Shown one piece after another: positions 626 to 48,166 of a DNA stretch of 48,166 nt; position 1 is the first letter of the stretch, and every line of letters starts with the position of its first letter. The position numbers and the translations under genes were made by a program. Source of the DNA: a virus. Lineage: Duplodnaviria; Heunggongvirae; Uroviricota; Caudoviricetes. The notes below the pieces were generated by a model, which had not been told where the DNA came from, did not search any database, and saw only the letters and a program-made list of their open reading frames with translations. The stretch is taken from the IMG/VR virus record IMGVR_UViG_2639762987_000003. One strand, written 5' to 3'.

Positions 626-933
626 GTTAGTTGTGCCTCCGGCGCTGATCTCCGGCAGTCATAACGCTGGCCAGCTCTACAGCAGACACAACGAAAAGGG
701 CACTAACCAGACTGATTAATGCCCTTGCCTGTTGTGTGCCGGATATCGCCCGACAACGCTGTTTTGGTAACACGGCTACAGTTCCGTGCCGCTCCAGCTT
801 TTACCCCTTTGCGGATAACAGGCCCTGCCTGTAACTTAGCCCCACGTTCGCCCGAAATGCGCACCAGGCACGCATAAAGATGAGCACGAAGGAAGTAACT
901 CCACCGCGCTTATCTTTATGTGTGAGAGTGAAT

Positions 934-1009
934 TGGTGGCCCCTACCGGATTTGAACCGATGACCGTGCGATTATGAGTCGCCTGCTCTAACCACTGAGC
1001 TAAGGGGCC
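934..1009 (-). tRNA. tRNA with CAU anticodon; acceptor, D and anticodon arms resemble E. coli tRNA-Ile2 (ileX-type), elongator tRNA-Met not excluded
   Basis: Reverse complement folds as a 76-nt cloverleaf: 7-bp acceptor stem GGCCCCT/AGGGGCC, D-arm GCTC-AGTGGTTA-GAGC, anticodon loop CTCATAA, T-arm ATCGG-TTCAAAT-CCGGT, terminal CCA encoded. Confidence 0.85.
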
Positions 1010-1150
1010 ATATTTGATCTGTTTGTCTGGTGTGGCGCCGCGCACGAAAATCCCAGCCAATAAATTCAGGATTTTTGGGCGCGGCGGCATATCAGACAAA
1101 CATGGTTGATGCGTGCGCCCATGAGAAAAGCGCATAGAATGTTGTAACTA

Positions 1151-1178
1151 TATATTTATATAATTATAGAAATATATA
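1151..1178. promoter_or_regulatory. AT-rich element containing perfect palindrome TATAATTATA (1159-1168)
   Basis: Member of a dispersed AT-rich motif family; lies between the lysis cassette and the tRNA. Confidence 0.5.
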
Positions 1179-5082: not shown

Positions 5083-5381
5083 TCCTCATCTGCAACGGGG
5101 GTGTTCCGCTCCAGCACCTTGTCCGCATCAGCGATCAGGTTTGCCAGACTCTTGTCTGAAATCTTCGTTACCGGAGTCGTTGGTTGCTCAACCTGCCCGA
5201 TAGGTTTTATCGTGCTCAAAAGGAGGCGACGGCGGGAAAGTGGTGCCCCACAACGACGGCCATCTTCCTTGCGATATGTTTCTTTCGGACCAACACACCA
5301 GGTTGTCGGCGTTTCGCGCAACTTCACTCTTTTCTCACCATCATTGGTAATGATTATTCCGGTATGGGTTTTGATGCTCAT
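5016..5381 (-). CDS. Hypothetical protein
   Basis: 121-aa ORF in operon context. Confidence 0.4.
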   Translation of the reverse strand: MSIKTHTGIIITNDGEKRVKLRETPTTWCVGPKETYRKEDGRRCGAPLSRRRLLLSTIKPIGQVEQPTTPVTKISDKSLANLIADADKVLERNTPVADEEWWQDFRAAMLELQERRREELK

Positions 5382-5680
5382 GCCACAGCCCCTCTCAACG
5401 GCTTAACTTTGGCTAATAAGGTGTTAAACAACATGGAGTTAGGATTCATGCCAAATGGCAATTCCGGTTTAGCGGAGTAGTACAGGCAACCATTTATTTT
5501 CCTGGTTGTTATCTGTCCTTCGGCAACCATGCTTCTCAGTCTGCAACGCATAGAGTTCTGCGACACACCAATGTGCTCCGCGATTACGTCCACTTTTGAA
5601 CATGGGTGATCGGTCAGGAAATTAATCACATCTTGGGGGTTAATAATTTTGCGTTTCATTGTCGAGGCGTCCTTATACAT
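5378..5680 (-). CDS. Hypothetical protein, possible small DNA-binding regulator
   Basis: 100-aa ORF directly downstream of an AT-rich motif and a hairpin terminator. Confidence 0.4.
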   Translation of the reverse strand: MYKDASTMKRKIINPQDVINFLTDHPCSKVDVIAEHIGVSQNSMRCRLRSMVAEGQITTRKINGCLYYSAKPELPFGMNPNSMLFNTLLAKVKPLRGAVA

Positions 5681-5704
5681 TTGTATAAATATATAATTCT
5701 ATAT

Positions 5705-5736: not shown

Positions 5737-6804
5737 TCAGGCTTTCAATAGCGATTCTTTTAGATATCGGGCATCAGCCAGGGCGTTTGGAGTAATCTTG
5801 CGAACCCATGCATTACGGGTTGGACTCCACTTAAAGGCGCGTGATTTAAGCAGCGAACGAATGTTTGCCTCTGGTTTGCCAGGGAAATAAAACAGGATGC
5901 GGTTATCCTCTGGATCTATCTCCATAGAAAAGCCGTCGTATTCTTCGCGCTGTGCTCCTGTTACAGACTTGACCGATTCAAGCTCCTTAATACGGCTCTG
6001 TAGTCGTTTGATTTCGGCGTTATTGTTGCTCAGTGCGTATGAAGGGAATCCGATGTGCCCACAGAAATCTCCGGCCAGTAACTCTTTGGCTTCGCTTTCT
6101 GTAAACCTGAGATCGATTAATGCAGAAAGCTGCTGTATTTGGTCTTTTTTGTATTTGCGAATGGCCTTATTTGCGGCCTTCATTTTGACGTGTGACTTCA
6201 TGCAGCCTTGCAGCTTACGAAGCAACTTAAATAGCGCATCAGGATCATCAGACGAAATTCCATTACGACCAACACCTGCGGCTTTGCTCTCGTAGTGTGA
6301 TGCTTTACTTTCGCATTCAACAAACGCTTTTCTGAATAACGCATCAGCTTTAGACAAACGGCGGCGATGGCCTTTCGCGCTATAATGGTCAACTAAAATC
6401 GGCTGGCCTAACGGGATCACATCCAACAGGTCATGCGCTCGCTTATGCGCTACCGCACCTTCTTTTCTGGCTTTTTCTGCACGAGCAATATATCGGGCAA
6501 GACGCGCGTTCTGGCGTTCCTGATAGGTGTTTACGTAATCATCTCCGCGCTGCTGCTGTTCAAGCCATGCTTTGCGCAGATCTTCTGTTACGTCCACCAG
6601 CTCCGCAGGGATACAACCAGTTTGGGCTTCATAAGAGTAACCATCCTCATAGATACGCCCATCGTCTTCAACAAAGAAAAAGGTTTCGTGCTCATCGCTT
6701 TTGACCATACGACCATTAACATGGCGTAATAGGTAGCCAGTATCAGTGCTTAACAGGCTGTTAGGGTTGTTGATCCAGTCAGAAATAATTACTTGTTTAT
6801 TCAT
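5737..6804 (-). CDS. Hypothetical 355-aa protein, first gene behind promoter cassette A
   Basis: Start set at the ATG 8 nt downstream of the cassette's GGAG; the longer track ORF (from 6858) translates the conserved leader. Confidence 0.6.
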   Translation of the reverse strand: MNKQVIISDWINNPNSLLSTDTGYLLRHVNGRMVKSDEHETFFFVEDDGRIYEDGYSYEAQTGCIPAELVDVTEDLRKAWLEQQQRGDDYVNTYQERQNARLARYIARAEKARKEGAVAHKRAHDLLDVIPLGQPILVDHYSAKGHRRRLSKADALFRKAFVECESKASHYESKAAGVGRNGISSDDPDALFKLLRKLQGCMKSHVKMKAANKAIRKYKKDQIQQLSALIDLRFTESEAKELLAGDFCGHIGFPSYALSNNNAEIKRLQSRIKELESVKSVTGAQREEYDGFSMEIDPEDNRILFYFPGKPEANIRSLLKSRAFKWSPTRNAWVRKITPNALADARYLKESLLKA

Positions 6805-6912
6805 CAGATTTCTCCGGTTTAACCAGGGCGGGTATCGCTCGGTTTCGGGTATAACCATAGGAAATTTTTTCCCACCTGTAAAGCACTTTTTATATAAATC
6901 TATAATTATATA
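6801..6912 (-). promoter_or_regulatory. Promoter-leader cassette copy A: TATAATTATA palindrome, -35 TTTACA, 17-bp spacer, -10 TATGGT, ~45-nt leader, GGAG, ATG
   Basis: Near-identical to 16776-16877 and 48055-48166; lies about 60 bp downstream of the Q-like gene. Confidence 0.6.
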
Positions 6913-6973
6913 TTTATAGATTTTCGATGTTCCCGATGTCTACACACCATCAAAACAGCTCAAAATGACACTT

Positions 6974-8833: not shown

Positions 8834-9324
8834 TCCTCAAGCCTCCCAAGTGCTGAACGCCGGGCGTTGCTAATCTCCTTATGAATCAGCTCGATATCGC
8901 TGGAATCTTTATTCTTAAGCTCCAGCACGGTAATCGCATCACGAACCTCTGAAACGGTTACGTGTGAGTGTTTCCAGCGAGCAATGAATCGCGGACCGCG
9001 TAGATTGCAACGCTCCGCAGGCATCCCCAGCTCAGAGAAAACCGCTTTCAGCCTTGATAAGCAGTTAACAGGGAGATTCCCTTTGATCTTGTTCTGCCGA
9101 ACCGATGTGCCATCGCTACGCTGGCGCTGACGTTCGGCAAAATCTGCCGCCCATTGCTGGACGTTAATCCGGCCTTCCGAATACGCCACCAGCAGCGTCA
9201 GGTTATCCGCACGAGGGAATCTCTCGAAGCGATACCAGGCACCAATCAGTGATGACGTAAAGCAAAACTTTCTGGCAACACCAATTTGGCCTCCATTTTC
9301 GTCAACCCACTCCTGAAAGGTCAT
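8830..9324 (-). CDS. First gene of the operon divergent from the repressor; possible DNA-binding regulator
   Basis: 164-aa ORF transcribed divergently from the CI-like repressor across an operator-rich region. Confidence 0.4.
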   Translation of the reverse strand: MTFQEWVDENGGQIGVARKFCFTSSLIGAWYRFERFPRADNLTLLVAYSEGRINVQQWAADFAERQRQRSDGTSVRQNKIKGNLPVNCLSRLKAVFSELGMPAERCNLRGPRFIARWKHSHVTVSEVRDAITVLELKNKDSSDIELIHKEISNARRSALGRLEE

Positions 9325-9343
9325 TTAACGAACTCCAGTTAAA

Positions 9344-9461
9344 ACCACGATACGTGGTATTAAAACCACATATCGTGAGTTTTTCAATGGGCGAAACAAA
9401 AAATAACCTTCTATTTGTGGTCCACCTCTCGTCTTACCATGTGAAAACCACTAAATGTGGT
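9344..9461. promoter_or_regulatory. Operator cluster: ACCAC-N5-GTGGT palindromes at 9344-9358 and 9447-9461, imperfect site at 9365-9379
   Basis: Perfect inverted-repeat half-sites with 5-bp spacer in the divergent promoter region; the 9447 site abuts a TATAAA -10-like element before the repressor start. Confidence 0.65.
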
Positions 9462-9498
9462 AATGTATAAATAACCCACCATTCACGATTGATGAGAC

Positions 9499-10155
9499 AT
9501 GAAAAGCAACGACGAGAACATCAAGAAAGAAATAGGTCTGCGCATTCAGACTCTACGGAAACAATCCGGCATGACTGCCGGAGATCTCCAGCAAGTCACT
9601 GGAATAGGCTTAAGCACCTTGCAGAACTATGAGGCCGGATTAAGACAACCATCTATACCTGCCATCAAGAAAATCGCGCACGCCCTGAAAGCATCAGCGC
9701 CTTATATCGCGTGCTTAACAGATAACCCGTTCCCACCCCAGAATACTAACGCTCCTGTTATTCCTGGGCTTGTAGCTATAAAAAATGACATAGCATCGCA
9801 CGCCGGAGAAAAGCCAGTGCTGGCGATAGAACAGGAGATTCTACGAAGCAAGAACATCAACCCATCGTCTCTGTCAGTTCTCCAGAGCAACGATGAGTTA
9901 ATGTCACCAACAATATCCCCAGGCTCCCAAGTCCTGATTAATACAGACGATACAGAGATTCATGAGGGGATCTATGCCCTTGAAGACAGAAATGGCCTGG
10001 TTGTTTTGAGGCACTGTAGAGTCATACCGGGTGACAATGCTGTTATGCTGTCAACCGAAAGGGATGCTGAAATGAACACTAAGCATCTGAATAACGAGGA
10101 ATTTAAGCGTTATAAAGTTCTTGGCCGCGTAGTTAGTGTTGTCAACTGGTTATGA
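9499..10155 (+). CDS. CI-like repressor (N-terminal HTH, C-terminal LexA/S24-like fold)
   Basis: HTH segment (MTAGDLQQVTGIGLSTLQNYEAG) and C-terminal domain alignable by eye to lambda CI; the Ser of the S24 'SM' motif appears replaced (DELMSPT). Confidence 0.7.
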   Translation: MKSNDENIKKEIGLRIQTLRKQSGMTAGDLQQVTGIGLSTLQNYEAGLRQPSIPAIKKIAHALKASAPYIACLTDNPFPPQNTNAPVIPGLVAIKNDIASHAGEKPVLAIEQEILRSKNINPSSLSVLQSNDELMSPTISPGSQVLINTDDTEIHEGIYALEDRNGLVVLRHCRVIPGDNAVMLSTERDAEMNTKHLNNEEFKRYKVLGRVVSVVNWL

Positions 10156-10627: not shown

Positions 10628-10650
10628 AGCGGGCTAACGCCCGCTTATAT
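10628..10650 (+). terminator. Rho-independent terminator-like hairpin
   Basis: agcgggc-taac-gcccgct followed by a T/A-rich stretch just after the 10248..10622 stop. Confidence 0.5.
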
Positions 10651-10750
10651 GATTATAGATTTATATAATTATATAAAACGCTTTTCATCAGCCAAAAAGT
10701 TGGTTATGCTTACCTCGTTCTATAAATATAGATTTATAGAATTATATAAC
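10651..10750. promoter_or_regulatory. Two AT-rich palindrome elements upstream of parA (perfect TATAATTATA at 10664-10673; variant TAGAATTATA at 10737-10746)
   Basis: Same motif family as at 23-32, 1159-1168, 6901-6910, 11429-11438 and 16866-16875. Confidence 0.55.
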
Positions 10751-11426: not shown

Positions 11427-11457
11427 TATATAATTATAGTTTTATAGATTTATATAA
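11421..11457. promoter_or_regulatory. AT-rich palindrome element (TATAATTATA at 11429-11438) between parA and the small downstream gene
   Basis: Motif family member followed by tatagatttatata. Confidence 0.5.
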
Positions 11458-11937: not shown

Positions 11938-11963
11938 CATAAAAAAAGGCCCCCGAAGGGGCC
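11938..11963 (-). terminator. Rho-independent terminator for minus-strand transcription
   Basis: Stem aggcccc/ggggcct with GAA loop, followed on the minus strand by 7 U. Confidence 0.65.
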
Positions 11964-11969
11964 TAATCG

Positions 11970-12092
11970 CTACTTGCTGCTAATGTTTATCGTCACATTC
12001 AGAGCGTTATCAGTAATCTTCCAACCCTCCCCATGTGGCGTAAACAAAGCCCCAGTAACAACGATAAAAATACACATACAGTATTTTTTCAT
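11970..12092 (-). CDS. Candidate 40-aa hydrophobic peptide (possible type I toxin or small secreted peptide)
   Basis: MKKYCMCIFIVVTGALFTPHGEGWKITDNALNVTINISSK; AAGGG 8-12 nt upstream of the ATG; own terminator downstream. Confidence 0.35.
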   Translation of the reverse strand: MKKYCMCIFIVVTGALFTPHGEGWKITDNALNVTINISSK

Positions 12093-12415
12093 TGTATGGC
12101 CCTTACAGGCCGTTTCACGGCATCCCCACCGACGAAAACAACGCGAGAGCAAGCACGGCTGCTTGTGCTTGCATGTACGGCAACGGAGAATCCTCCCCTA
12201 AAGTCGGTGCCCGGGTGCGAATCGGCGGGAAGGTCCACAGGTATTTTACGATTATTTTAAGATTAGTAATAGGAAAGAAATTAAACGAAAAAACTCGTTT
12301 ATTTTCACAAAATCAGTAACCTACCCACAATCTGTGAGTTTGCAGGCACAACAAGAACCACAATTTTTTGAAGCATAATAGTGGACTATTATTACCTTTT
12401 GGGTAAAATTAACTT

Positions 12416-12585: not shown

Positions 12586-12682
12586 GCGCCATTGGTGGAC
12601 ACTTTCCGAGCCGTAGCAAAATCTACGGTCGGGATTGGAACCCCGTGGACACAATGGCGCATACCGCGTTAGCGGTTTTTTT
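12586..12682 (+). ncRNA. Candidate structured regulatory RNA domain (P1 c4-like antisense RNA analogue)
   Basis: 9-bp closing stem gcgccattg/caatggcgc (12586-12594 with 12652-12660) encloses a hairpin and the element GAUUGGAACC; ends with a short hairpin plus 7 T. Confidence 0.35.
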
Positions 12683-12848
12683 ATGCGTAAAGCACTGCTA
12701 CACCCAAATTATGGTGGGGCGTGCGGGGGAGTCGTAAGACTCGCCGGTTCGTCATTGTGTCCGGTAGTTCCAACCCTGCACGTCTCACCACCCAATGATT
12801 GGAACCTGACGGTGGTGAGTATCCTTAACCTTTAAGGGAATCATCACA

Positions 12849-13040
12849 ATGACAAACCTACCCCATGACTATTACGTCAACCTCGTAAAGATCCTTCTCA
12901 AGAAAGCCTCATACGCCGATAAATTCCGCCTGGCTGAAATCATCGAGCGCGAAGCTATGCGCATCGCCAGCAACGATAACGCTGTTTCTGACGCAAAAAT
13001 CTCCCTCGTAACCAAAGTAGTTATGGGAGGTGCAAAATGA
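12849..13040 (+). CDS. Small protein upstream of and overlapping ant (icd-like position)
   Basis: 63-aa ORF with AAGGGA 9 nt upstream; its stop overlaps the ant start. Confidence 0.4.
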   Translation: MTNLPHDYYVNLVKILLKKASYADKFRLAEIIEREAMRIASNDNAVSDAKISLVTKVVMGGAK

Positions 13041-14179
13041 AAACGCTTCCGACCGTTAACACCCTACAGCCTATCCTGCATAACCAGATCCCCGTTATCA
13101 CTAGTGAACTTCTGGCGCAGTTATACGGAACAAAAATCAAAAACATTTCTGATAACTTTCTGAACAACACGACGCGATTCGTAGCCGGAAAGCATTACTT
13201 TAAAATTGAAAAAAACGAATTACGCGAGTTCAAGAACAGACCCGAAACAATCGGGTTAGTTGGTAAAAATGCCCGCTCCCTAATTCTCTGGACCGAACGC
13301 GGGGCTGCACGTCACGCTAAAATGCTCGAAACCGATCAGGCGTGGGATGTATTCGAACGGCTGGAAGACTGCTACTTCAACCAGAACGCGCAAACGGCCG
13401 CGACCGTAACCGTCTCGCCAAACAATGCTCGTGAGGTTGTCGATACGCTCAACGCCAAACCGATGTTTTACATTAAGGTGTGCAATAACGAGCCACTCAC
13501 AACCTCAGCCGATGTTGCCCAAGCATTCAGCACCACAAACAATTCCATCGTTATGGCCATCGATGCGTTACGCATTCCTCGCACAGCTGCGGCGCGTCAT
13601 TTCTTTAAAGAGCAACGACCGTTGGAAGGAAGCGACCGCGAAATAACAATCTATCGCATGACAAAAGACGGATTTACCTTGCTCATGGAGAGTATCGACG
13701 GTCCAGGCGTGAAAGATATCAAGCTGGCCTACATTGAAGCCTTTAACGCTATCAGCAGCGTGTTAAAAACACAGTACGAGCGTGATCTGGCTAAACGACT
13801 GTACCAGGAAAAAACGATTATCCGCGCGGCAACAGAGCATAATCGGCTATTAACGGAACCGAACTACAGGAAGGAACTAATAAAGGAGTTTGACAAGGCA
13901 ACAGGGAAAACCAAAGCGGCGCTAAATCTGCCAGCAATGACTCAGGAAAATGTGATATCAGCCTTACTTCTTGATCTGCTCAGAAACGCCAGAGCACTTA
14001 TCAGCTTTGACGAAAATCTGAACCCTCAGCTCAAACTACTACCACCGACAGGCAAAGTAGTCGACCAAGCTGATCACAACAGCATACTCAGCGTACTGGA
14101 TGCAAACCTGCCAGCCAGGACACTACAGGAACTGATAAAAATATCTGCGGATAAACTGGCCGCAGGTGCAAAACCATAA
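13037..14179 (+). CDS. Antirepressor (Ant-like)
   Basis: 380-aa protein whose N-terminal region resembles antirepressor N-terminal domains (ITSELLAQLYGTK...RFVAGKHYFKI...LWTERGAARHAKML). Confidence 0.7.
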   Translation: MKTLPTVNTLQPILHNQIPVITSELLAQLYGTKIKNISDNFLNNTTRFVAGKHYFKIEKNELREFKNRPETIGLVGKNARSLILWTERGAARHAKMLETDQAWDVFERLEDCYFNQNAQTAATVTVSPNNAREVVDTLNAKPMFYIKVCNNEPLTTSADVAQAFSTTNNSIVMAIDALRIPRTAAARHFFKEQRPLEGSDREITIYRMTKDGFTLLMESIDGPGVKDIKLAYIEAFNAISSVLKTQYERDLAKRLYQEKTIIRAATEHNRLLTEPNYRKELIKEFDKATGKTKAALNLPAMTQENVISALLLDLLRNARALISFDENLNPQLKLLPPTGKVVDQADHNSILSVLDANLPARTLQELIKISADKLAAGAKP

Positions 14180-15505: not shown

Positions 15506-15757
15506 TTATGACGACACTTTAACCTTTTCCCATACAAGGGTTTGCAGCCTTAACAGAATCGCATCTTTATCAAGGTGTGAAAGATCCTTAACCATATCGT
15601 CAAACGACAGAACGCGAATGGCCATCTCCATGACACTCGGCGGCCCCCCCTTCTCATATCGCTTATATGTAGCCAACGATATCCCAAACTCTTCGGCGGC
15701 TCGCTCCTGCGTCCAGTTCATCCCACGACGCCATAATTTCAATTCGTAACCCGTCAT
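15506..15757 (-). CDS. HTH (Cro/C1-type) transcriptional regulator
   Basis: 83-aa protein with HTH-like segment (MNWTQERAAEEFGISLATYKRYEKG). Confidence 0.55.
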   Translation of the reverse strand: MTGYELKLWRRGMNWTQERAAEEFGISLATYKRYEKGGPPSVMEMAIRVLSFDDMVKDLSHLDKDAILLRLQTLVWEKVKVSS

Positions 15758-15858
15758 TACATCCTCTACCTTTCCCTAGATATTCAATAAATTAGACATA
15801 GCCACTCACGACAAAATAAGATGTATTAACAATCCAATCTTTAGGCTTTAGGTAAAAA

Positions 15859-16284
15859 ATGAGTTCATCTGCTTTTGTCACCGTGGTCACTGGTGTAAGT
15901 GTTTTTGTTCTAGGCCAACTCATCGTCAAAGGAGCTATTGAGCCTTACATTTCATTCAGGGAACAACTAGGGAAAATATCCAATCTGTTATTGTGTAACC
16001 AAGCAAAAATAGTGAATCCTGGCTCGAACTTAAAGCCAGAAATCATTCATGATCTAAAAGATTCCGCAGCACAGTTAATGGCGAAATATTCCACTTTACC
16101 TTTCTATATCAAAAAGTTACATATCGGCTTTCGTCTTGTTCCATCAGCCACCGAGATTCTTGGTGCAGCTCAAAATTTGAACTATATAGCATCAATACAT
16201 GAAGGTAAGACTGGGGAAAATCCATCTAAGCATCTCGAAGAGATTGGCCATATGCTCAAAATACCAACTACCTATTCAAGCTAA
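15859..16284 (+). CDS. Hypothetical protein with N-terminal transmembrane helix
   Basis: 141-aa ORF in an AT-rich segment; only plus-strand gene in this block. Confidence 0.4.
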   Translation: MSSSAFVTVVTGVSVFVLGQLIVKGAIEPYISFREQLGKISNLLLCNQAKIVNPGSNLKPEIIHDLKDSAAQLMAKYSTLPFYIKKLHIGFRLVPSATEILGAAQNLNYIASIHEGKTGENPSKHLEEIGHMLKIPTTYSS

Positions 16285-16387
16285 CCCAATGTAAGTTATC
16301 GGCTTGCCCCACAATAAGTTATCTATCTTCAAACGCCCCCTATATTAACACTCGCAAAGTGTCAAAATGACACTTTGCGCATTGTGT

Positions 16388-16768
16388 TTACTTAACGAGG
16401 AATAAAAATGGTTTATCGTTCGGCGGTGTAATCGGGGCTGGCTCGCTTTTGCTCATGCGATCAGTGTACCAGGCCAACTCCTTGTCAAAGTAAGCCTGAT
16501 TAAAATAGGCCATGAATGTGGTTTCAAATCCATAACGACCGCTAATACGCAGCATCTGATTGCCGTTCTCTGTTTCCAGATATACCTGGGCACGTTCCTG
16601 ATTCTCCTTCAGCCAGGTTAAAGCCTCATCGCACGAGGACAAACGATACTCATCATCGTAGCCGTCATCGATGCGGCTTGAAGAAGAACGGCAAATCACG
16701 CCAACAGAACCAGCCAGGATAGTTTGAATTTTAAGGAAAGCGTTTTTGCGGATTTTAATCATGCTCAT
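16388..16768 (-). CDS. Hypothetical protein, first gene behind promoter cassette B
   Basis: 126-aa ORF whose ATG lies 8 nt after the cassette's GGAG. Confidence 0.5.
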   Translation of the reverse strand: MSMIKIRKNAFLKIQTILAGSVGVICRSSSSRIDDGYDDEYRLSSCDEALTWLKENQERAQVYLETENGNQMLRISGRYGFETTFMAYFNQAYFDKELAWYTDRMSKSEPAPITPPNDKPFLFLVK

Positions 16769-16775
16769 CGGGTTA

Positions 16776-16877
16776 TCTCCGGTTTAACCAGGGCGGGTAT
16801 CGCTCGGTTTCGGGTATAACCATAGGAAATTTTTTCCCACCTGTAAAGCACTTTTTATATAAATCTATAATTATATA
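16776..16877 (-). promoter_or_regulatory. Promoter-leader cassette copy B (identical to copy A over 102 bp)
   Basis: Same -35 TTTACA / -10 TATGGT / leader / GGAG as copy A; contains TATAATTATA at 16866-16875. Confidence 0.6.
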
Positions 16878-16889
16878 ATTCTATGAGCA

Positions 16890-16916
16890 CAAAAAAGCCC
16901 CTTTGCAACAGGGGCT
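16890..16916 (-). terminator. Rho-independent terminator ending the higBA transcript
   Basis: On the minus strand, stem agcccct/aggggct with 7-nt loop followed by 6 U. Confidence 0.6.
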
Positions 16917-16931
16917 TATCATTCGTTCTGA

Positions 16932-17231
16932 TCAGATGTTAAACGCTATTCGTTTTCCTGTGGGAAGCTCAACATCCAGGCTTAATTTGCCTCCCATAGC
17001 TTCAACGTAACGCTTTAATGTCGCCAGCTTTAAATCATTTCCGCGCTGCTCCAGCTTTGTTACTGCTGGCTGGCTTATACCCATCGCCTCAGCAACCTGT
17101 TTTTGTGATAACTGGAGTTCTTCACGCATCATCTGCAAGCCGACCTCAAGAATCATCTCATCTGCCATTTCTTTAATTCGCGCCTGGCTTTCAGGTGAAC
17201 GGCTGGCAATCACCTCATCTAATGTTCTCAT
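16932..17231 (-). CDS. higA: HigA-like HTH antitoxin
   Basis: 99-aa HTH protein (LSQKQVAEAMGISQPAVTKLEQ) immediately downstream of the toxin gene, 1-nt overlap. Confidence 0.65.
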   Translation of the reverse strand: MRTLDEVIASRSPESQARIKEMADEMILEVGLQMMREELQLSQKQVAEAMGISQPAVTKLEQRGNDLKLATLKRYVEAMGGKLSLDVELPTGKRIAFNI

Positions 17232-17584
17232 TACTTGCTCTCCAGTGTGTTCAGATGTGCTGCAAACTCATCCTCAGCTATACGCACCAGTTTTTCATAA
17301 AACCGTTTATCGTTACTTTTGTCTCCTGCACAAAGAACGATGGCCCGGCGAATCGGATCGAACGCATAAAAGGCTCTGATCGGACGGCCAGAAAACTGAA
17401 CGCGAAGCTCTTTCATATTTTTGTACCGAGAACCTTTTACGGTATCGGCATATGGCCTGGGTAACTCAGGTCCGTAAACCTGTAGCTTTTTCAAATCAGC
17501 CAAAACCTTTTCCTGAAGAGCGTCTTCTTGCTCATTTAGCCAGTCGTCAAATCGCTGGCTAAAAAGTACCGTCCACATGCTCAA
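17231..17584 (-). CDS. higB: HigB/RelE-family toxin (Gp49-like addiction-module killer)
   Basis: 117-aa protein with segments typical of HigB-like toxins (PIRAFYAFDPIRRAIVLCAGDKSNDKRFYEKL); toxin-first gene order. Confidence 0.65.
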   Translation of the reverse strand: MSMWTVLFSQRFDDWLNEQEDALQEKVLADLKKLQVYGPELPRPYADTVKGSRYKNMKELRVQFSGRPIRAFYAFDPIRRAIVLCAGDKSNDKRFYEKLVRIAEDEFAAHLNTLESK

Positions 17585-17587
17585 TCC

Positions 17588-17633
17588 TATAACCTGTAGT
17601 TTATATCACTAACTATATAACCTGTGGGTTATA
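17588..17633. promoter_or_regulatory. Putative higBA operator: direct repeat TATAACCTGT (17588, 17616) with TATAACC/GGTTATA inverted arms
   Basis: Repeats lie directly upstream of the toxin start. Confidence 0.4.
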
Positions 17634-17822
17634 ATTTCAAGAAAAACGGGGCTATTTAACATAATGGACGTTATCGGCACCACCGGATCACCGTTCATTG
17701 TCGGATCTAAAAAATCCGCTCAAAAGATCATGTTTTCCTGGGCGTTTTCCACCGTTTTTTATGTTGCTTATTTGTTAATGAAATCTCGTTTTCAGTTTCG
17801 CCTCATTTTCGACGCGAAAGCC

Positions 17823-18113
17823 CTATTTTTGTGACTTTACTCCTGGCATATGGACTTCCCAGCGACGAATCCCCATAGCTGCGCAAAAATCAGCCACATA
17901 ATTCAATCCCGCCCATTCGCGGATACCACCACGGGCTTTTTCAATGAAAACGGCAATCCCTTTTTTATTGAGAGCAAAAAGCCGCCAGCTTTTTGTCACT
18001 TCGTCCTGGGTAGCCACAACACAAGTGAAAGCTCCCATGCGATACAGGTCCAAGAACTCTTTGCGTGTTTTGCGTACAAGTTCCATAACAAACCTCATAT
18101 TTGCATGTTTCAA
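17823..18113 (-). CDS. Hypothetical protein
   Basis: 96-aa ORF with start/stop overlap to the upstream gene. Confidence 0.4.
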   Translation of the reverse strand: MKHANMRFVMELVRKTRKEFLDLYRMGAFTCVVATQDEVTKSWRLFALNKKGIAVFIEKARGGIREWAGLNYVADFCAAMGIRRWEVHMPGVKSQK

Positions 18114-18409: not shown

Positions 18410-18779
18410 TTATTATATCTACGATGGTAGGAAATCTTTTCCTATGTGGCAATAGAAATTTACTACATTGCGTATAAGACAAGTTTTCTATGTCTAATAG
18501 GAAATGATGTTTCTTACGTTTTATCGCGTTCTGATGGCTACTGTGTGCGTATTTCTCGACGTTTATTGATAAGGCTCGCCCCTTCCTCCTGCAAAGCCCG
18601 GCCGTAGGCCTTATTTCGGCCTTATATAAATTGATTTTGTATAGTTCGAAACGCGCCGTTTCGAAAAGGATGATCAGGCTGCTCCATGCCTCCGGCAAGT
18701 GCCGGAGGAGGTATATTTGAGCGTAGCGACTCGAACCGGCGCGAGCTTTAGCTCGCTGCAAGGGCGAACATATTCACAG

Positions 18780-21629: not shown

Positions 21630-24475
21630 TATGCAAGCCTCACAATATAATTAAATGCGATGTTTTTAACGGTGTTTTCCGCGTTACCAGCAGCGTTAAC
21701 GGTGATGGTGTGTCCATGTGAACCAATCTTAACAGAGTGCGTATGAGCGCCAATACCAACAGTGTGTGCATGTGCCCCAGCACTTGTAGCGGTACCTGAT
21801 ACTGAGTGGGTATGTGCGCCAGAAGAAGGCACAGTTCCATTCCCCACCACCGTGCCACTTGATGAACCATCCAGCCAGTCGAAATTCATACCGCCACTGT
21901 TTGGTCTCCTTAATGGAACGGTATGAGTATGTGCGCCAGCACTATTTGCAGTACCAGATACATTGTGGGTATGTGCACCTGTGTTATTCGTTGATTTAGT
22001 ACCGTAATCAAACGACGATGTGGTTTTCGTACCCAAATCCGTACTGGATGCGCTGGCACTGTGGGTGTGCGATTTAATGCCATCCTGTTCCTGAGACAAT
22101 ACGGCCCGACCACTGGCGGGTTTGCCCTTGATTGTCCAGCCGCGCATATCTGGAATAACACCAGAAGGATAGGCAATAGCCAGTTTCGGATATGCTGCCT
22201 TATCAAACGTCTGCCCCTGCATGATTGCATAACCTGCAGGTGGCGTATCTGATGGCCACGGCAGCGGAACACCTGGCGGAAACGCTTCAATATTTGCCGA
22301 GCCGTCAAATTTTACGCCGTTAATTGTCCTTGCCGTTTTCAGCTTTGTTGCTGTAGCAGCATTGCCGGATAGTTCGCCTGAAAGACCACCGCTGAATGTC
22401 TGTTTCGCCATCCATGTCTGAGCTTCGTCGATAATTGGCACACGTCTTGTCGTGATCGTGCGGCTTCCCGGATTTCCTGAAATGCGAACCATAAAAAAGC
22501 GGTAGTTGGCTTTACTTACAGTGCTGCGCCATACATGCATTGAGCGTCCCGAACCAGAATCATCACTCGGACCGACTGAGATGTTTATCAGGTTGCCATC
22601 AATGACGCCCCAGTCCATACCGTCGGGAATATTGGTCATGTTATCAAGCCGAACGGTTATCAGACTGCCCGGCACAAAATCGTAGGTCTGCCAGTCCAGG
22701 CTGGTGAGCTTTGCCACAGCACCGCCGATACCCAGATTCAGGGGAAGTGAATACGAGGTGTAGACTTCCCGCCATTCGCTCCATGAGCTGCCGGTAAAGA
22801 CGCGCTCAAAGGTGCGGCCTTTAAGGGTTGTACCTGTTCCGGCAGTTGTATAACGCTGCCATACATTAACACCATCAAACCGCCTCAACACTTCCAGAAT
22901 GCCGAGTACAGTCACGCCGTTTCCGTCCAGTACTGGACCGTTGGTCGCTTTACCTGTAACGCTGTAAATACCTGGTGAGGTTACATCATTCAAATCACCT
23001 TCGTAATAACGACTCTCTGACTGATGACCGACTCTTAACCACGGTTCCCACTGCGGATTTGATGCATCCCAGCTTGCCGCAAGACAGCGGACATACATAT
23101 TTCCACGGCGAGTGGTATAACGTTGCGTTCTTCCATAATTTCCGCCTTCGAGGATCTCAAGCATCCCCTGAGCAAAGCCGCCTTCCTCTGGATAATTGCG
23201 TTCATATGAAGCTATAGCTGAGCTACTGTTACGCCATAAACCAAGATGCTCGGCGGCTCCAAGCGTATTCAGGTCTATAGTCGTACTCAAAGGGCGGGTA
23301 GCAGATTGAGTGTGACGCCATACGCCCCACGGACCATCAGTGCCATTCCACTTATTGGCGAGTTTACGCATGTATACATTGCCGCCTCCCGTGGTAAAGC
23401 GTTGCGTACCTGCAAAATTGCCGGCAGCAAAAACCTCAAGCACACCGACAGCATTATCTTCCGGGAAATTTTTCTCCAGTGTTGCGTTGGTGGATGTTGC
23501 TTTAGACCAGATACCTGAATAAGCCTTAACAGGACCAAACGTATTCAGATCAGCATCAAGCGGCATTTCGCCATTGTTTTTCATAAACGTCAGGCTGGTA
23601 ACGCCAACATTGTCCAGAAAAGCTGATTTATCCTGGATATCTGCACCGTTCTGATTTTTCGCCAGACGTGAATTTGCGTTGTCATTTGCTGCCTTGACCG
23701 CTTTTGGCGTTGCCGCCTGCGTTTCAGACGTACTGTTAGTGGCACTACTGAGCTGAACTATCCCTTTTTGTGCCGTGGTGGCATTCTGGGCGGTATATTT
23801 TCCGTCAGCCAGGTCATATGCAGCCTTAACAGCCTTAGGCGTCGCTGCGAGCTTTTCAGACGTGCTATTGGTGGCATTACTGAGTTGAACAATGCCTTTT
23901 GATGTTAAAGTTGCATCAGGATGATTACGTGATTGCTCATGTTTTACAATAGCTTGCTTAAGCCGCTTTGCTGAAACAGCCAGGGAATCATCTGTACCTG
24001 CATCAATTTCTTGTTCATTAGCAAATCTTGCTACTCCAACAACAGTTTCGGTTGCGGGAGGGTTAATAAACTCAACATCACCAAATGTAATGTTTTTAGT
24101 ATCAAGATTTTTAATTGCTATATCACTTGATATTAAAGCAATTGTAGAAGATGCTTTATTTATTATTACTTGTTCTTGCGAGTATACAGCAAACAATGTT
24201 CCTTTATTTGTATACAAACCTATTGTATGGACAGCATACTCATCTTTACTATCATCCTTCGCAGTTACATGAATGGTATCAGGAGAAACGACTTTGCCTC
24301 CTATTGTGGTAAGTCGCTTTATTTCATCTGTTATTTTTGTTTGTGTGGTTGATGTGGCATAATATCTACTACCTAAACCAACAGAAACGATCTCAACTTT
24401 ATTTGTTCCAGTCTTGTTGGCATTAACCAGCGCCTTACGCCCGGCGTCAGTCATCGTAAATAATAATTTACTCAC
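21629..24475 (-). CDS. Tail fibre protein
   Basis: 948-aa protein with His-rich GAH(T/A)H(S/T)V repeats at the C-terminus. Confidence 0.8.
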
Positions 24476-28814: not shown

Positions 28815-31599
28815 AACTTAATCTCCGTTGTTGGAACATATGAGCACTCAATTTCTTCTCAAAATCAGAATATCCCGCATCTAATGCTCTTTTAGCTGCC
28901 GCCTCAGTTTCCTTTGGTGAACCAGCCGGAAGATTGATTACAGGTGAATAGGTTATTCCACCAGTCACAGCGTTAACGTTCTGGCGAGGTCCAGAAGTCC
29001 CGGCGGCAGATATCCCGTGAGGTGATAAATTTGATTGCCCGAACTTGCTTGCTATTGCATTCTGTAAGCTGTTATTCCTGCTAACACCTGATGCCAGAGT
29101 AGTCATTATTGCACCACCTGACTTTGTTAGCTGTGAGAATGGACCTTTTTTCGCGTCAGAGAACGGTAAATACTCACGTACAGAAGAAAAAACGCCTTTC
29201 ACTTCATTAATTAAAGCATTTGCTTTTGATTTTATCCCAGTGATTAACGTCTCAATTATTTTTGCGCCTGACTCACTCCAGTTTATTCCAGATAAATAAG
29301 TCGTTACAGATTGGAATGCTCTTATAAAGAGTCCAACTGGTGAAAAACGCATAAAAACAGATACCAGTGTATCTATGATTTTCTTTCCTGTTTCGCTCCA
29401 GTTAATGCCAGAAAGGTAATTTGTTGTAATTTTAAATGCTTTAATTAAGAACGGAAGCGGAGACATCCATTTAAAAGCACTAATTAATGTACTGTAAATT
29501 CTTACACCTGCCGAACTCCAGTTTATGTTGGAAAGATAATCCCATGCTTTACCAAACATAGATATAATCCATCCATTGAGGTCAAAGTTTAAGATAAAGT
29601 TTTTTATAGCCTCAAATGATTTAACTGTATATTCCTTAACAGAAGGCCAAACTCTGACAGCATAATCTCTGATCTTATCCCAATTCTGATAGAGCAATAT
29701 TCCTGCGGCAACCAGCGCAGATATAGCCATCTGAATCCACCCGAAGGGTGTTAGCTTTGTCGCTACAGATAAAGCCAGCATAGCTACCCTACACGCTATA
29801 ACCACACTTTTCATGGTTAGAAACGCACCTGCCGCCATCACTATCTGAGACACAAAATTGGGGTTGTTAGCTACAAATTCACTAATTTTTGTAATCAGCG
29901 GAACCAAAACACTAAGCGCGGCATTCAAAGCAGGTTGCAAGGCCTGACCAAAACTTAATGATGCATTGCTAGCCTGAATACGTAATTGTTTCAATCGCTC
30001 CGCATTATCTTTCGTTATGTTGGCAAAATCGCGGTCAATAACAGCACTTCCAGCTCCAAGAGATGTTGCTTTGATTCTCTGGTATTCCTTCCAGTTTTGA
30101 ATCATCGGACGAACAAAGTTCTGAACCTGCATATCGCCAAATAGTTCACCAAGTAACTTCTGATCTCCGTTCTTAGTCATTTTCATGACAGAATGCATTG
30201 CAGCTTCGAATGGATTCTTCCCTTTTTTCTGCGCTGTTGTAACAATTTTATATAAATCTACACCGAAATTTTTCTTTGCTTTTTTTAGTGTTTCAGGGGA
30301 AAGTATTTTTGCCAAAAAGTTGTTCATATTATTAGCAGCCTCATCCGAAGTTGCAGCCCCCTTGCGAGCTATCTGCAAAGCTGCACCCATCGTCGCGGCT
30401 GCTTCTTTACCTCCCATTTTTAATGCCTGGAACTGAGCACCAAGCACAGGAAGATTTTTGGCCATATCTTTAAATTCAAAGTTCCCCTCTTTCCCTGCCT
30501 GAACCAGAATCCCCATTGCAGACTTCATTTGAGATGGATCAATCTTCAATGAGTCACTTAATGTAAATGATGCTTTCGAGACATCGAGGATATCAGAGCC
30601 AGTAGCTGTAGCTGTTCGCCCAATAGTTAGTAGATTCGCCTGAGCCTCTTTATAATCCTGCCCAGCAGCGACGAGAAAACCCTGAGCGGCCTGAATATCA
30701 GATGCAAACTGGTTGGTAGCCGTTCCGGTAACAAGCATCGCCTGCCCCATCGCCTGAACTTCTTCCGGCTTCATATCTGCCGTAAGACCAATCATTTTGT
30801 TTTCACGATTGAAATTTGCTGCATTGTTAGCAGCAGCAAATGCACCAGCCGCTACAGCACCAGTTTGTAATCCTGACCTTACAAGTTGACTCTTTGCCTC
30901 ACCAAGATGCTCTCGCTTCAATTCACGCTGCCTTTCCAACGCGCGGTTTAACTCCTCCTGAGCACGTTTTACTGCAAGAACATTTTTCCGTGCTTCAGCC
31001 AACGCATTTTTATAGCTGTTAATTTTATCAATACGTTGTTTTTCTAATGCCCGGTTAAGTTCCTCCTGCTGTTTTTTCACTTGCTGAACATTTGCTCTGG
31101 CTAAAGCCAAAGCCGTTCTGTAGCGGTTAACCTGCTCAACGCTACGGGCCTGAGCCTCACGATTACGATCAATGCTGGCTTTAAGCTCTTTCTCTCTTGA
31201 GGCCAAAGCTCTGGCAGATGTATCAGCTCCCTGATAGGCAGACTTTAAAGCGGCCAGTTCTTCACGCTGAGAACGTAGTGATGCTCGTAAATTCGATGAA
31301 TGTGTTTTTGCCTTCTCAAAGTCACGAAGCATCGCTCTGGTTGGATTGGCCGTGTTTTTTATTTGCTTCTGTAACTCTTCAACGCGAGCGGCAGCTTTAT
31401 GATATTCGAGGGCAGTCTGTCCAACCTTTACTTTTACAGATTGTAGCTTTTGAATTTCCCCATGTTCTTTCGTTAATCCAGCAAGCTCGGCATTTAATTT
31501 AGCAACAGCCTGATTAGCTGTAGTAAAACTTTTGGGGAGAGAGGCGGCAACTTTGCCGCCAATTTCAAAAGCCAGCTTAAAGTTCTTATTGCTGGCCAT
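28807..31599 (-). CDS. Tail tape measure protein
   Basis: 930-aa protein with long coiled-coil N-terminal part and three SGINWSE(S/T)G...II(D/E)TL repeats. Confidence 0.85.
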   Translation of the reverse strand: MASNKNFKLAFEIGGKVAASLPKSFTTANQAVAKLNAELAGLTKEHGEIQKLQSVKVKVGQTALEYHKAAARVEELQKQIKNTANPTRAMLRDFEKAKTHSSNLRASLRSQREELAALKSAYQGADTSARALASREKELKASIDRNREAQARSVEQVNRYRTALALARANVQQVKKQQEELNRALEKQRIDKINSYKNALAEARKNVLAVKRAQEELNRALERQRELKREHLGEAKSQLVRSGLQTGAVAAGAFAAANNAANFNRENKMIGLTADMKPEEVQAMGQAMLVTGTATNQFASDIQAAQGFLVAAGQDYKEAQANLLTIGRTATATGSDILDVSKASFTLSDSLKIDPSQMKSAMGILVQAGKEGNFEFKDMAKNLPVLGAQFQALKMGGKEAAATMGAALQIARKGAATSDEAANNMNNFLAKILSPETLKKAKKNFGVDLYKIVTTAQKKGKNPFEAAMHSVMKMTKNGDQKLLGELFGDMQVQNFVRPMIQNWKEYQRIKATSLGAGSAVIDRDFANITKDNAERLKQLRIQASNASLSFGQALQPALNAALSVLVPLITKISEFVANNPNFVSQIVMAAGAFLTMKSVVIACRVAMLALSVATKLTPFGWIQMAISALVAAGILLYQNWDKIRDYAVRVWPSVKEYTVKSFEAIKNFILNFDLNGWIISMFGKAWDYLSNINWSSAGVRIYSTLISAFKWMSPLPFLIKAFKITTNYLSGINWSETGKKIIDTLVSVFMRFSPVGLFIRAFQSVTTYLSGINWSESGAKIIETLITGIKSKANALINEVKGVFSSVREYLPFSDAKKGPFSQLTKSGGAIMTTLASGVSRNNSLQNAIASKFGQSNLSPHGISAAGTSGPRQNVNAVTGGITYSPVINLPAGSPKETEAAAKRALDAGYSDFEKKLSAHMFQQRRLSFG

Positions 31600-42895: not shown

Positions 42896-43452
42896 TTTTT
42901 AACCGCCATAACACAACAGGTTAAAGAAAAATGTTTAACTTATTGATACTAAAAGAGAAAAATGACGATCTTTTTACTCATAAAAAATCACACAAACCAG
43001 CATAATTATCTGGTTTTATTAAGTTTTTATAAGTAAAAAGGATCTTCCGATGGTGTTTTGGTTAAAAGATTGGATGTATTTGCATGATTTATAAAGATTT
43101 TTATCAAAACAGCCTTGCATTGGTTAAAGATCTGCGCGTATCTTGATGATCTAAAAGAAAATTCTCTACTTTCTTTTCACCATCACAAGCACAGCAAAAA
43201 ATCACGTTTTCCCAATATTTTTCAATGAGATGGGTAAATTTCTTTTACCGCAACTTTTAACCTAACTTTTTTCACGTTTAGCTAGCCGAACATCGGGGTT
43301 CGAATGACCCGCATCCAACGCTTTTGGCCAGAAGGACCCAATTCTGCCGGACGATGAAACGATGCTCGTGCCCACCCACAGACAGCCAGCGAGCGACGCT
43401 ACAGAACACAGTGAATACACTCTGCATAACAACACCATCAACCACACGATGA
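42896..43452. other. Long intergenic region upstream of the packaging genes; candidate packaging or regulatory site
   Basis: About 555 bp without convincing ORF; AT-rich half contains four GATC sites (about 42969, 43041, 43128, 43152). Confidence 0.3.
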
Positions 43453-46870: not shown

Positions 46871-46878
46871 TGTAAGAG

Positions 46879-47591: not shown

Positions 47592-47792
47592 TTAATGCTC
47601 GCGTCGTCCGGCGACAACTTCGGATTTGTATTTCAGGTCGCCCAGCAAGAATTGCAGTTTAAGCATCTTTGCCGCCGTGTAGTTCCCTGATTCCACAACC
47701 TCTTTCATGAGGTCATAAACGGCCGCAACATCATCAGCCAGGAACTCTTTGCGTTGCTGCTCAGTCGCACGTTTGAAGGAAATACGCATCAC
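47592..47792 (-). CDS. Hypothetical small protein
   Basis: 66-aa ORF, start overlaps the upstream stop. Confidence 0.4.
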   Translation of the reverse strand: MMRISFKRATEQQRKEFLADDVAAVYDLMKEVVESGNYTAAKMLKLQFLLGDLKYKSEVVAGRREH

Positions 47793-48058
47793 TCATCATC
47801 TCCTGCCGCACATACAACCTCACAAAAAAAATCAGCAGAATGTTTCTCCTTGAACGAATGACGCTCAAAACCGCACTCAATATCAGGCGCAAAAACATCC
47901 ACCACATACGGTCTTTCAGAATGTTTGTTTTCCCAACGATAAACCGTAGTGACGTTGAAATGTTTTAACGCTTCACGGAACTCAACGCTGCCCGTCAGGT
48001 TTTTTGAGGTCAGGTATTGCAGGAGGTTTTTTACTACTTCACGGTCTTGTACTTTCAT
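47789..48058 (-). CDS. Hypothetical protein, first gene behind promoter cassette C
   Basis: Start set at the ATG 8 nt after the cassette's GGAG (MKVQDREVV...); the longer track ORF translates the leader. Confidence 0.5.
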   Translation of the reverse strand: MKVQDREVVKNLLQYLTSKNLTGSVEFREALKHFNVTTVYRWENKHSERPYVVDVFAPDIECGFERHSFKEKHSADFFCEVVCAAGDDE

Positions 48059-48166
48059 CAGATTTCTCCGGTTTAACCAGGGCGGGTATCGCTCGGTTTC
48101 GGGTATAACCATAGGAAATTTTTTCCCACCTGTAAAGCACTTTTTATATAAATATATAATTATATA
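48055..48166 (-). promoter_or_regulatory. Promoter-leader cassette copy C (continues across the circular join into positions 1-34)
   Basis: Same -35 TTTACA (48136-48131) / -10 TATGGT (48113-48108) / leader / GGAG as copies A and B; one mismatch in the AT-rich end; TATAATTATA at 48155-48164. Confidence 0.6.

Follow-up and report, generated by a model that had tools for sequence, protein, structure and literature searches.

A repeated cassette resembling KorC-controlled plasmid promoters precedes a small gene of an uncharacterised protein family in a phage-plasmid

What a repeated promoter sequence is doing in front of a solitary small gene, and at which stage that gene would be expressed, are the questions raised by one locus of the virus record IMGVR_UViG_2639762987_000003 (Caudoviricetes; 48,166 nucleotides, referred to as the window), which represents a phage-plasmid. 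The gene encodes a protein of 126 amino acids (aa) and directly follows one of three copies of a sequence cassette. A first-pass annotation had described the cassette as the element that heads the late operons, and had proposed the gene as a candidate anti-defence or host-takeover factor co-regulated with late or lytic expression. From the analysis presented here, the cassette has the organization of the promoters that KorC controls in the kil-kor regulon of conjugative plasmids, and the 126-aa gene is probably, with moderate confidence, an establishment gene of a KorC regulon that would be expressed on entry into a cell rather than during late lytic growth.

The cassette repeats at positions 6792–6912, 16757–16877, and 48046–48166 with 88–97% identity over 121 nt, the third copy running on at 1–42 of the circular molecule. 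Repetition of this kind is far beyond chance, and the earlier description of the 126-aa open reading frame (ORF) as lying behind a repeated cassette is thus borne out. Across the whole stretch from the AT-rich repeats to the start codon, the copies hardly vary. As listed in Table 1, an array of 8-bp-periodic octamers is followed by a sigma-70-type promoter (TTTACA-17-TATGGT, 16847–16819 on the minus strand), a leader of approximately 50 nt, and a Shine-Dalgarno sequence whose spacing to the ATG is constant (GGAGA, with the ATG of the 126-aa ORF 8 nt beyond). The promoter spacer contains the palindrome GGGAAA-AAA-TTTCCT (GGGAAAAAATTTCCT), which abuts TATGGT and is predicted to be a KorC-type operator. 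The leader contains a small hairpin that has been maintained across the cassette lineages, with 89% of cells paired and four of the eight pairs changed on both sides. The observed score was reached by none of 500 shuffles and collapsed in slid controls. A comparison of the leader with Rfam gave no match within 16300–17000 at E ≤ 1.

Within the window, GGAAA-N3-TTTCC occurs perfectly four times, namely in the three cassettes and at 18430–18442, and all four sites lie between a -35 and a -10 hexamer at 17-nt spacing. The fourth site belongs to the promoter of a gene for a 99-aa protein, approximately 1.3 kb from the cassette of the 126-aa gene. In a tblastn search, the 99-aa protein matched genes carried by 3926 plasmids, most of them conjugative, and annotated as ‘KorC’ or ‘transcriptional repressor protein KorC’; its identity to KorC of an IncP plasmid is 41% (E 2e-16). 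The alignment of this family of KorC homologues has a conserved helix-turn-helix (HTH); Pfam returned no match for the 99-aa protein. Such homologues are rare among phages, being found in four of 50,697 phage records, three of which are relatives of the window element. An unknown 96-aa gene (17823..18113) follows the korC homologue.

The closest parallel to the cassette was found in the IncP conjugative plasmid pLR-27_2, whose annotations include an antirestriction protein, klcB, KorC, and kleE. The palindrome TAGGACAAAATGTCCTA occurs three times in this plasmid, each time between a -35 and a -10 hexamer (TATAAT/TATACT), and the copies precede DUF905, antirestriction (klcA-like), and kleA-like genes. 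The leader after each copy has the form ...AAGGCCGGGTAA...ACCGGAGAAxxCCGATG (also ...AAGGCCGGG...ACCGGAGAA..CGATG). It aligns collinearly with the cassettes, with equal operator position and leader length and with shared AAGGCCGGG and ACCGGAGA blocks. Because it is collinear with the IncP promoters, the cassette belongs with the KorC-operator promoters that make up this family in the plasmid kil-kor regulon.

The likeness to the klcA, kleA, and kleC promoters of the IncP-1 plasmids RK2/RP4 extends to the regulon as a whole. In both systems the element encodes a KorC-family HTH protein, several near-identical promoters, one of them serving korC, hold a 17-bp palindrome (TAGGxx...xxCCTA) in the spacer between -35 and -10, the leader and the Shine-Dalgarno-to-ATG spacing are collinear, and the cargo consists of small genes, mostly of unknown function. 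The differences lie in the host, which is a conjugative plasmid there and a temperate myovirus-type phage-plasmid here; in the region upstream of the promoter, where the cassette has no KorB site but an array of AT-rich octamers that recurs at a small-ParB partition locus; and in the cargo, which here comprises DUF3560 and families termed A (that of the 126-aa protein), B, and C. Thus, an encoded KorC-family repressor and an operator within the spacer of several promoters, including that of korC, are all present, while the cargo of klcA (ArdB-type antirestriction) or kle genes is not, and only DUF3560 among the cassette-driven genes has a Pfam match.

Two further plasmid systems are comparable. 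In the IncU plasmid RA3, KorC is a global regulator that represses duplicated promoters (orf02p and klcAp) before monocistronic operons ending in hairpins (PMC7414963). KorC of RA3 differs in that it also controls replication and transfer operons. In the CUP (conserved upstream)/ArdK system of the IncN plasmid pKM101, a repeated upstream sequence with a promoter and a repressor site precedes several leading-region genes, among them antirestriction genes and the gene for the repressor itself (PMC6289460, citing Delver and Belogurov 1997). This second likeness is functional only.

The behavior of RP4 provides a model for the timing of the cassette. KorC is one of the autogenous global repressors of RP4, and together with KorA it keeps klcA among the most weakly expressed genes of the plasmid at steady state; in fresh transconjugants, klcA is the most strongly induced gene, at approximately 120-fold (PMC7314908). 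The Kor regulators are autogenous, and the kil genes are harmful when derepressed (PMC10871194). By analogy, the cassette would be a portable promoter/leader unit of the kil-kor (KorC) type, to which the KorC homologue would most likely bind as a dimer, blocking RNA polymerase. In a resident plasmid-prophage, KorC would hold down the expression of its own gene and of the three cassette units. When DNA enters a KorC-free cell by infection, the cassettes would fire until KorC accumulates, mirroring the zygotic induction of klcA. Since klcA is silent at steady state and induced on entry, the timing expected of the cassette is immediately after entry and not late. The 126-aa gene would be one cargo of the regulon, bounded by hairpins on both sides, and its product may bind another protein during establishment, either as an anti-defence factor or as a ‘kil’-type factor that modulates the host or a regulator. 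As one promoter/leader cassette is common to them, co-regulation of the 126-aa gene with the other cassette genes, already suggested in the first-pass annotation, is likely. If this reading is correct, a temperate, plasmid-living phage has adopted a global control circuit that is characteristic of broad-host-range conjugative plasmids and uses it to confine the expression of a group of small genes to the time of entry.

Relatives with homologues that are 47–67% identical to the 126-aa protein have the same architecture before their family-A gene. The elements compared were IMG/VR contigs of 16–47 kb (most of them 40–47 kb), a Paraglaciecola metagenome-assembled genome, and a 56-kb Vibrio campbellii phage-plasmid. 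The order in these relatives is AT-rich repeats, a -35 hexamer (TTGCxx), and a palindrome AGGAx-N3-5-xTCCT abutting the -10 hexamer (TATTAT/TATATT), continuing with a leader of approximately 50 nt that contains a small hairpin, the Shine-Dalgarno sequence, and the ATG. Each element carries two to four copies within a few kilobases, each usually before one small gene, and the family-A gene is cassette-driven in elements of Enterobacteria, Vibrio, and Paraglaciecola. Every cassette-bearing relative also has a korC homologue, which in all cases adjoins the family-A gene and lies downstream of a promoter with the operator; in Vibrio campbellii and Paraglaciecola the order is cassette-B-korC-cassette-A. 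From lineage to lineage, the two operator half-sites covary at their inner positions (AGGAAA/TTTCCT, AGGACT/AGTCCT, AGGACC/GGTCC). Since its partnership with korC and the cassette is conserved, family A is a good candidate for an establishment factor. The cassettes of the relatives also drive three further families, B (‘YLExRGNKMTL’), C (‘IANxILxQLGG...MTGAKN’), and D (191 aa), none of which was found in the window or has a Pfam match.

Table 1. Features of the cassette-driven gene, its proposed regulator, and related sites in the window and in relatives.
Feature	Position	Strand	Remark
Family-A ORF, 126 aa	16388..16768	-	Directly behind cassette copy
Cassette copy before 126-aa ORF	16769..16885	-	Octamer array, promoter, operator, leader, Shine-Dalgarno to ATG
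Array of 8-bp-periodic TTATAKAW repeats	16854..16885	-	Just upstream of -35
-35 hexamer TTTACA	16842..16847	-	
Putative KorC-type operator GGGAAAAAATTTCC(T)	16825..16838	-	In 17-nt spacer, abuts -10, one base off perfect palindrome
-10 hexamer TATGGT	16819..16824	-	
Leader hairpin AACC-GA-GCG-loop-CGC-CCT-GGTT	16786..16809	-	A few nt past predicted transcription start
Shine-Dalgarno GGAG	16777..16780	-	
Second cassette copy	6805..6920	-	Drives DUF3560 gene 5737..6804
Third cassette copy	48059..48166 (octamers on to 1–42)	-	Drives 89-aa gene 47789..48058, then 65-aa gene
KorC homologue, 99 aa	18110..18409	-	Proposed cassette repressor
korC-homologue promoter TTGCCA-17-TACCAT	18424..18452	-	Spacer holds perfect 17-bp palindrome TAGGAAAAGATTTCCTA at 18428–18444
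Intrinsic higBA terminator	16895..16917	-	8-bp stem then TTTTGTG; upstream of cassette
Hairpin between convergent genes, 12 bp	16353..16379	both	T-run favours plus strand; minus-strand U-tract weaker
Convergent gene, 141 aa	15859..16284	+	Downstream neighbour, shares 16353–16379 hairpin
Strong terminator, 10-bp stem	47570–47547	-	Ends 48058 cassette unit after 89-aa and 65-aa genes, before packaging genes
Small ParB-like gene, 82 aa	11470..11718		Follows parA
Arrays outside cassettes	10646–10748; 11427–11454; 5674–5703; 1143–1178		Two clusters upstream of parA; parA/82-aa gene; MarR-like gene; upstream of tRNA region
Loci with families B/C/D in relatives	L016 1256–3790; L014; L015; L003 5871–7540; L021 4220–5375		

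Several observations weigh against a KorC regulon of establishment genes. The operators of the three cassettes each have one mismatch in the left half-site (TGGGAAA vs TAGGAAA), so that repression of the cassettes could be weaker than that of the korC promoter. No homologue of KlcA, Kle, KorA, or KorB was identified among the cassette-driven genes, in analyses that included no KorA- or KorB-directed search. The leader hairpin of the window copy is thermodynamically unremarkable on its own (-9.6 kcal/mol, z = -1.08). A PADLOC search revealed no similarity between the 126-aa protein and any anti-defence family, and by a count from its sequence the protein is near neutral in charge, unlike the DNA-mimic antirestriction proteins. 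Lastly, the cassette at 6804 lies within a long series of same-strand genes that ends in lysis genes, and the GC-rich hairpin that follows the DUF3560 unit has no T-run, so that read-through toward the lysis genes is possible.

One alternative to control by KorC is the late expression proposed at first. In that case, the cassette would be a late promoter that requires a phage activator, as do the Lpa promoters of phage P1 with their inverted repeat at -22, and the 126-aa protein would be made together with the lysis and virion proteins, perhaps as a virion-packaged anti-defence protein like P1 Dar. The P1 late promoters are likewise dispersed in many copies with an inverted repeat upstream of the -10, and several of the 11 head monocistronic units (PMC10695390). 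The inverted repeat of the cassette is similarly placed, at about -19/-20; the other two copies are found on the strand of the lysis and ParB-like/terminase clusters, upstream of them; and the missing T-run after DUF3560 would allow a longer transcript. However, the cassette and korC promoters have good -35 hexamers (TTTACA/TTGCCA) at 17-nt spacing, unlike Lpa promoters, in which a conserved -22 box takes the place of the -35, and the P1 -22 boxes are unrelated in sequence to the palindrome, which matches KorC operators in an element that encodes a KorC homologue nearby. Searches of the window with P1 Lpa by tblastn and phmmer yielded no homologue (best E 0.34–0.62).

The surroundings of the other cassettes also argue against late expression. 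The unit at 48058 is closed by a strong terminator after two small genes, with a second terminator beyond it at 46871–46850, and the repeats upstream of the terminase genes are different ones. In the relatives, the cassettes lie in arrays of small accessory genes and not before structural genes. DUF3560, the product of the unit at 6804, occurs among leading-region-type genes (antirestriction, ssb, DUF905) in pO157 (PMC11125564). Late, activator-dependent expression of the cassette is therefore unlikely, and the claim that it heads the late operons does not stand in view of the KorC-type operator, the KorC homologue, the IncP-like promoters, and the lack of Lpa. More generally, a repeated phage promoter should not be presumed to be late.

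Scans of ten early-region proteins against PHROG detected no late activator; they identified a MarR-like winged-helix protein at 5378..5659. A 558-nt AT-rich gap upstream of the ParB/Srx and terminase genes (42930–43300, minus strand) contains the different repeats, which are TCTTTAACC-like, and is a better candidate than the cassette for late control or packaging; it may hold a late promoter, an activator site, or a pac region. The divergent cI/early region (9324–9499) contains three ACCAC-N5-GTGGT-type palindromes that are probably CI operators. As these are unlike the cassette palindrome, the cassette was rejected as a CI-repressed early promoter.

A different form of control is suggested by the octamers at the upstream end of the cassette. 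In the window, TTATAKAW forms 8-bp-periodic arrays with 33 overlapping matches in 8 clusters, compared with 0.02 expected from shuffles. The eight array sites are the three cassettes, two sites upstream of parA, one in the gap between parA and an 82-aa gene, one before the MarR-like gene (5659), and one at 1149–1180. The arrays outside the cassettes may be centromere or operator sites of a small partition protein. In the diverged relative L016 the unit is a different one (GATATAWA), likewise common to its cassettes and its parA region. The sharing of repeat units between cassettes and the parA region in both elements suggests a common binder, possibly the small ParB-like protein encoded by the 82-aa gene. 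A small ParB-like protein acting on such arrays would recall omega in pSM19035 or KorB in RK2.

On this basis, the octamer array might be the main control of the cassette, with the ParB-like 82-aa protein binding there, at each of the cassettes, as well as at the parA/parB arrays. Every cassette would in that case also serve as an additional centromere-like or silencing site, which would link the 126-aa gene to partition and copy control. The distribution of the repeats in the window and the parallel in L016 both favor such a role, which is also compatible with control by KorC. Nevertheless, the 82-aa protein has no Pfam match and its ribbon-helix-helix nature was read from the sequence by eye. 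The AT-rich tracts upstream of the -35 hexamer could act simply as UP elements, and the Paraglaciecola and Vibrio cassettes carry other AT-rich sequences. Primary control by the octamer array is possible but should be regarded as tentative, and KorC remains the favored regulator in what follows.

The 126-aa protein was first annotated as being of unknown function, with a profile search proposed as a check. Searches with the single sequence and with a 26-sequence profile gave no match in Pfam, NCBIfam, PADLOC, or PDB sequences, and no structural or housekeeping family was matched. PHROG 8090, itself of ‘unknown function’, was the only match, which leaves the original description in place. Close homologues (67–98% identity) are confined to enterobacterial plasmids of approximately 44–52 kb and Yersinia phages; the gene is present in 63 PLSDB plasmids, all typed as non-mobilizable. 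A profile search of 1.8 billion cluster representatives recovered only 38 proteins, and a search of genome contigs with the alignment of a distant family-A subgroup led to one locus. The family-A profile identified no paralogue within the window and nothing in the IncP kil region. The 126-aa protein is the founding member of an uncharacterised family.

Family A has in common an N-terminal α/β domain of approximately 100 aa with the motifs IRKNAxKKI, IDDSxD (IDDxxD), WL, and G.Y.F..F.AYF. A variable and probably disordered linker leads to a short C-terminal motif, which is hydrophobic in the window protein (PPNDKPFLFLVK, of the form PPNxxPxLFLV) and reads NVVSLCAYRxR in many marine members. AlphaFold (AF2) models were confident for residues 1–107, with a predicted local distance difference test (pLDDT) score of 78, or 85 with a deeper alignment. 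The modelled fold is β-α-β-β-α-β-β-β-α with a disordered tail, and a fold comparison with these models identified no match.

Fusions are the only functional hints for family A. In P0018, P0021, and the L012 gene, the family-A domain is fused to a second domain, B (‘YLExRGNKMTL...’), which in other elements is a separate cassette-driven gene. Four distant members have LPD25 at their C-terminus, with scores near or below the Pfam cut-off (26.8–27.1 vs 27). LPD25 is a domain of the polyvalent proteins of conjugative elements, and the LPD domains, which also occur as single genes, have been proposed to act early in invasion (PMC5512222). By these fusions, family A resembles the solo polyvalent-protein domains of the LPD set (Iyer et al. 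2017, PMC5512222), with the difference that it is not itself among the LPDs named in Pfam. In a conjugative plasmid, one of the LPD25-fused members is encoded between parAB and the traM/relaxase genes. A Photobacterium member belongs to an island made up of roughly twelve small, singly promoted genes, including a Lar restriction-alleviation gene, and a member from a Vibrio phage adjoins an MT-A70 methyltransferase. In the contig with the Photobacterium island (L018 1–16384, Photobacterium kishitanii), a different promoter (TTGTCT-N17-TATTAT plus a conserved leader) occurs in twelve copies 660–1470 bp apart. Each copy precedes a small unknown gene, the family-A member and the Lar gene included, so that the island appears to consist of identically promoted single genes.

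The proposal that the 126-aa protein is an anti-defence or host-takeover factor is still reasonable as a candidacy, and draws no support from PADLOC. The same applies more widely if the KorC regulon is real: families A, B (the fusion partner), C, and DUF3560 would all be candidates for establishment or anti-defence functions. A broader and more speculative proposal is that the cassette, with its fixed leader stopping exactly at the ATG, is an ancient, exchangeable expression module common to IncP-type plasmids and several phage-plasmid lineages, in which recombination between copies swaps single ‘entry-burst’ genes, and that family A with its fused partner domain is a new anti-defence or regulator-modulating establishment factor that docks via its C-terminal motif on a host or element protein. 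Taken as a whole, this proposal is rather unlikely.

The flanks of the gene agree with its first description as lying between the higBA terminator and a plus-strand gene, and as an accessory, self-contained unit. Family matches place HigB in the Gp49 family and HigA in HTH_3, and the terminator behind them is predicted to insulate the cassette from upstream transcription. The convergent 141-aa gene on the other side has no family match. Its region (15757–16342) is absent from the Yersinia phages and many related plasmids, and represents a variable insertion beside the shared hairpin.

These surroundings would also suit a moron that is expressed from the resident prophage, with a benefit to the lysogen such as superinfection exclusion or defence, in which case the palindrome would not function as an operator. 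A terminator upstream and a hairpin downstream insulate the unit, which lies in a variable accessory region beside a toxin-antitoxin pair and adjoins a gene that the Yersinia phages lack. Yet across lineages the operator, along with korC, is conserved and shows covariation, the cassette also drives leading-region-type genes, and PADLOC has no match to the 126-aa protein. Service as a moron is therefore very unlikely, and a cargo gene of the KorC regulon is the preferred description.

The nature of the element was assessed with a 1.9-kb query (window 15800–17700), which is 100% identical to the circular, non-mobilizable E. coli plasmids NZ_CP020497.1 and NZ_CP020518.1 of approximately 48 kb. 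The Yersinia phages vB_YpM_39/41/44 are approximately 99% identical to the same query across 71% of its length; a literature search found no paper on these phages. The annotation of NZ_CP020518.1 includes phage genes of the contractile-tail type (terminase, portal, ClpP-like protease, capsid, sheath/tube, baseplate, tail fibres, holins, and a GH108 endolysin) along with plasmid and control genes (RepA, ParA, a CI-like repressor, and a higBA-type toxin-antitoxin pair). Because virion genes and plasmid functions are annotated together, the element can be classified by its gene content as a temperate myovirus-type phage-plasmid. The minus strand holds almost all of the genes from approximately 9324 leftwards round the circle to 16388. 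For the phage-plasmid group to which the element belongs, common in clinical E. coli as judged from the 63 PLSDB plasmids, the KorC regulon would provide a concrete control model of the accessory region. The pSLy3 group was considered as a set of relatives and rejected, as it belongs to the SSU5 supergroup.

Other features of the window concern RNA genes and repeats. A tRNA gene (Rfam RF00005) at 937–1009 on the minus strand, annotated as tRNA-Met in the Yersinia phage record, lies within ORF 836..1135, which for this reason is probably not a gene. A strong Rfam match to ryfA RNA (141.8 bits) is located at 11942–12238 on the minus strand, just downstream of the partition genes. Rfam matches to isrK (12610–12682) and C4 antisense RNA (12707–12795) lie directly upstream of an ORF6N/Rha antirepressor-like gene (13037–14179), and the region resembles the ImmI-type antisense-controlled antirepressor module of P1/P7. 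The tail-gene stretch contains three 42-nt repeats at an exact spacing of 120 bp and 63-nt repeats 159 bp apart (29258–29539 and 21758–21979), which are probably internal protein repeats.

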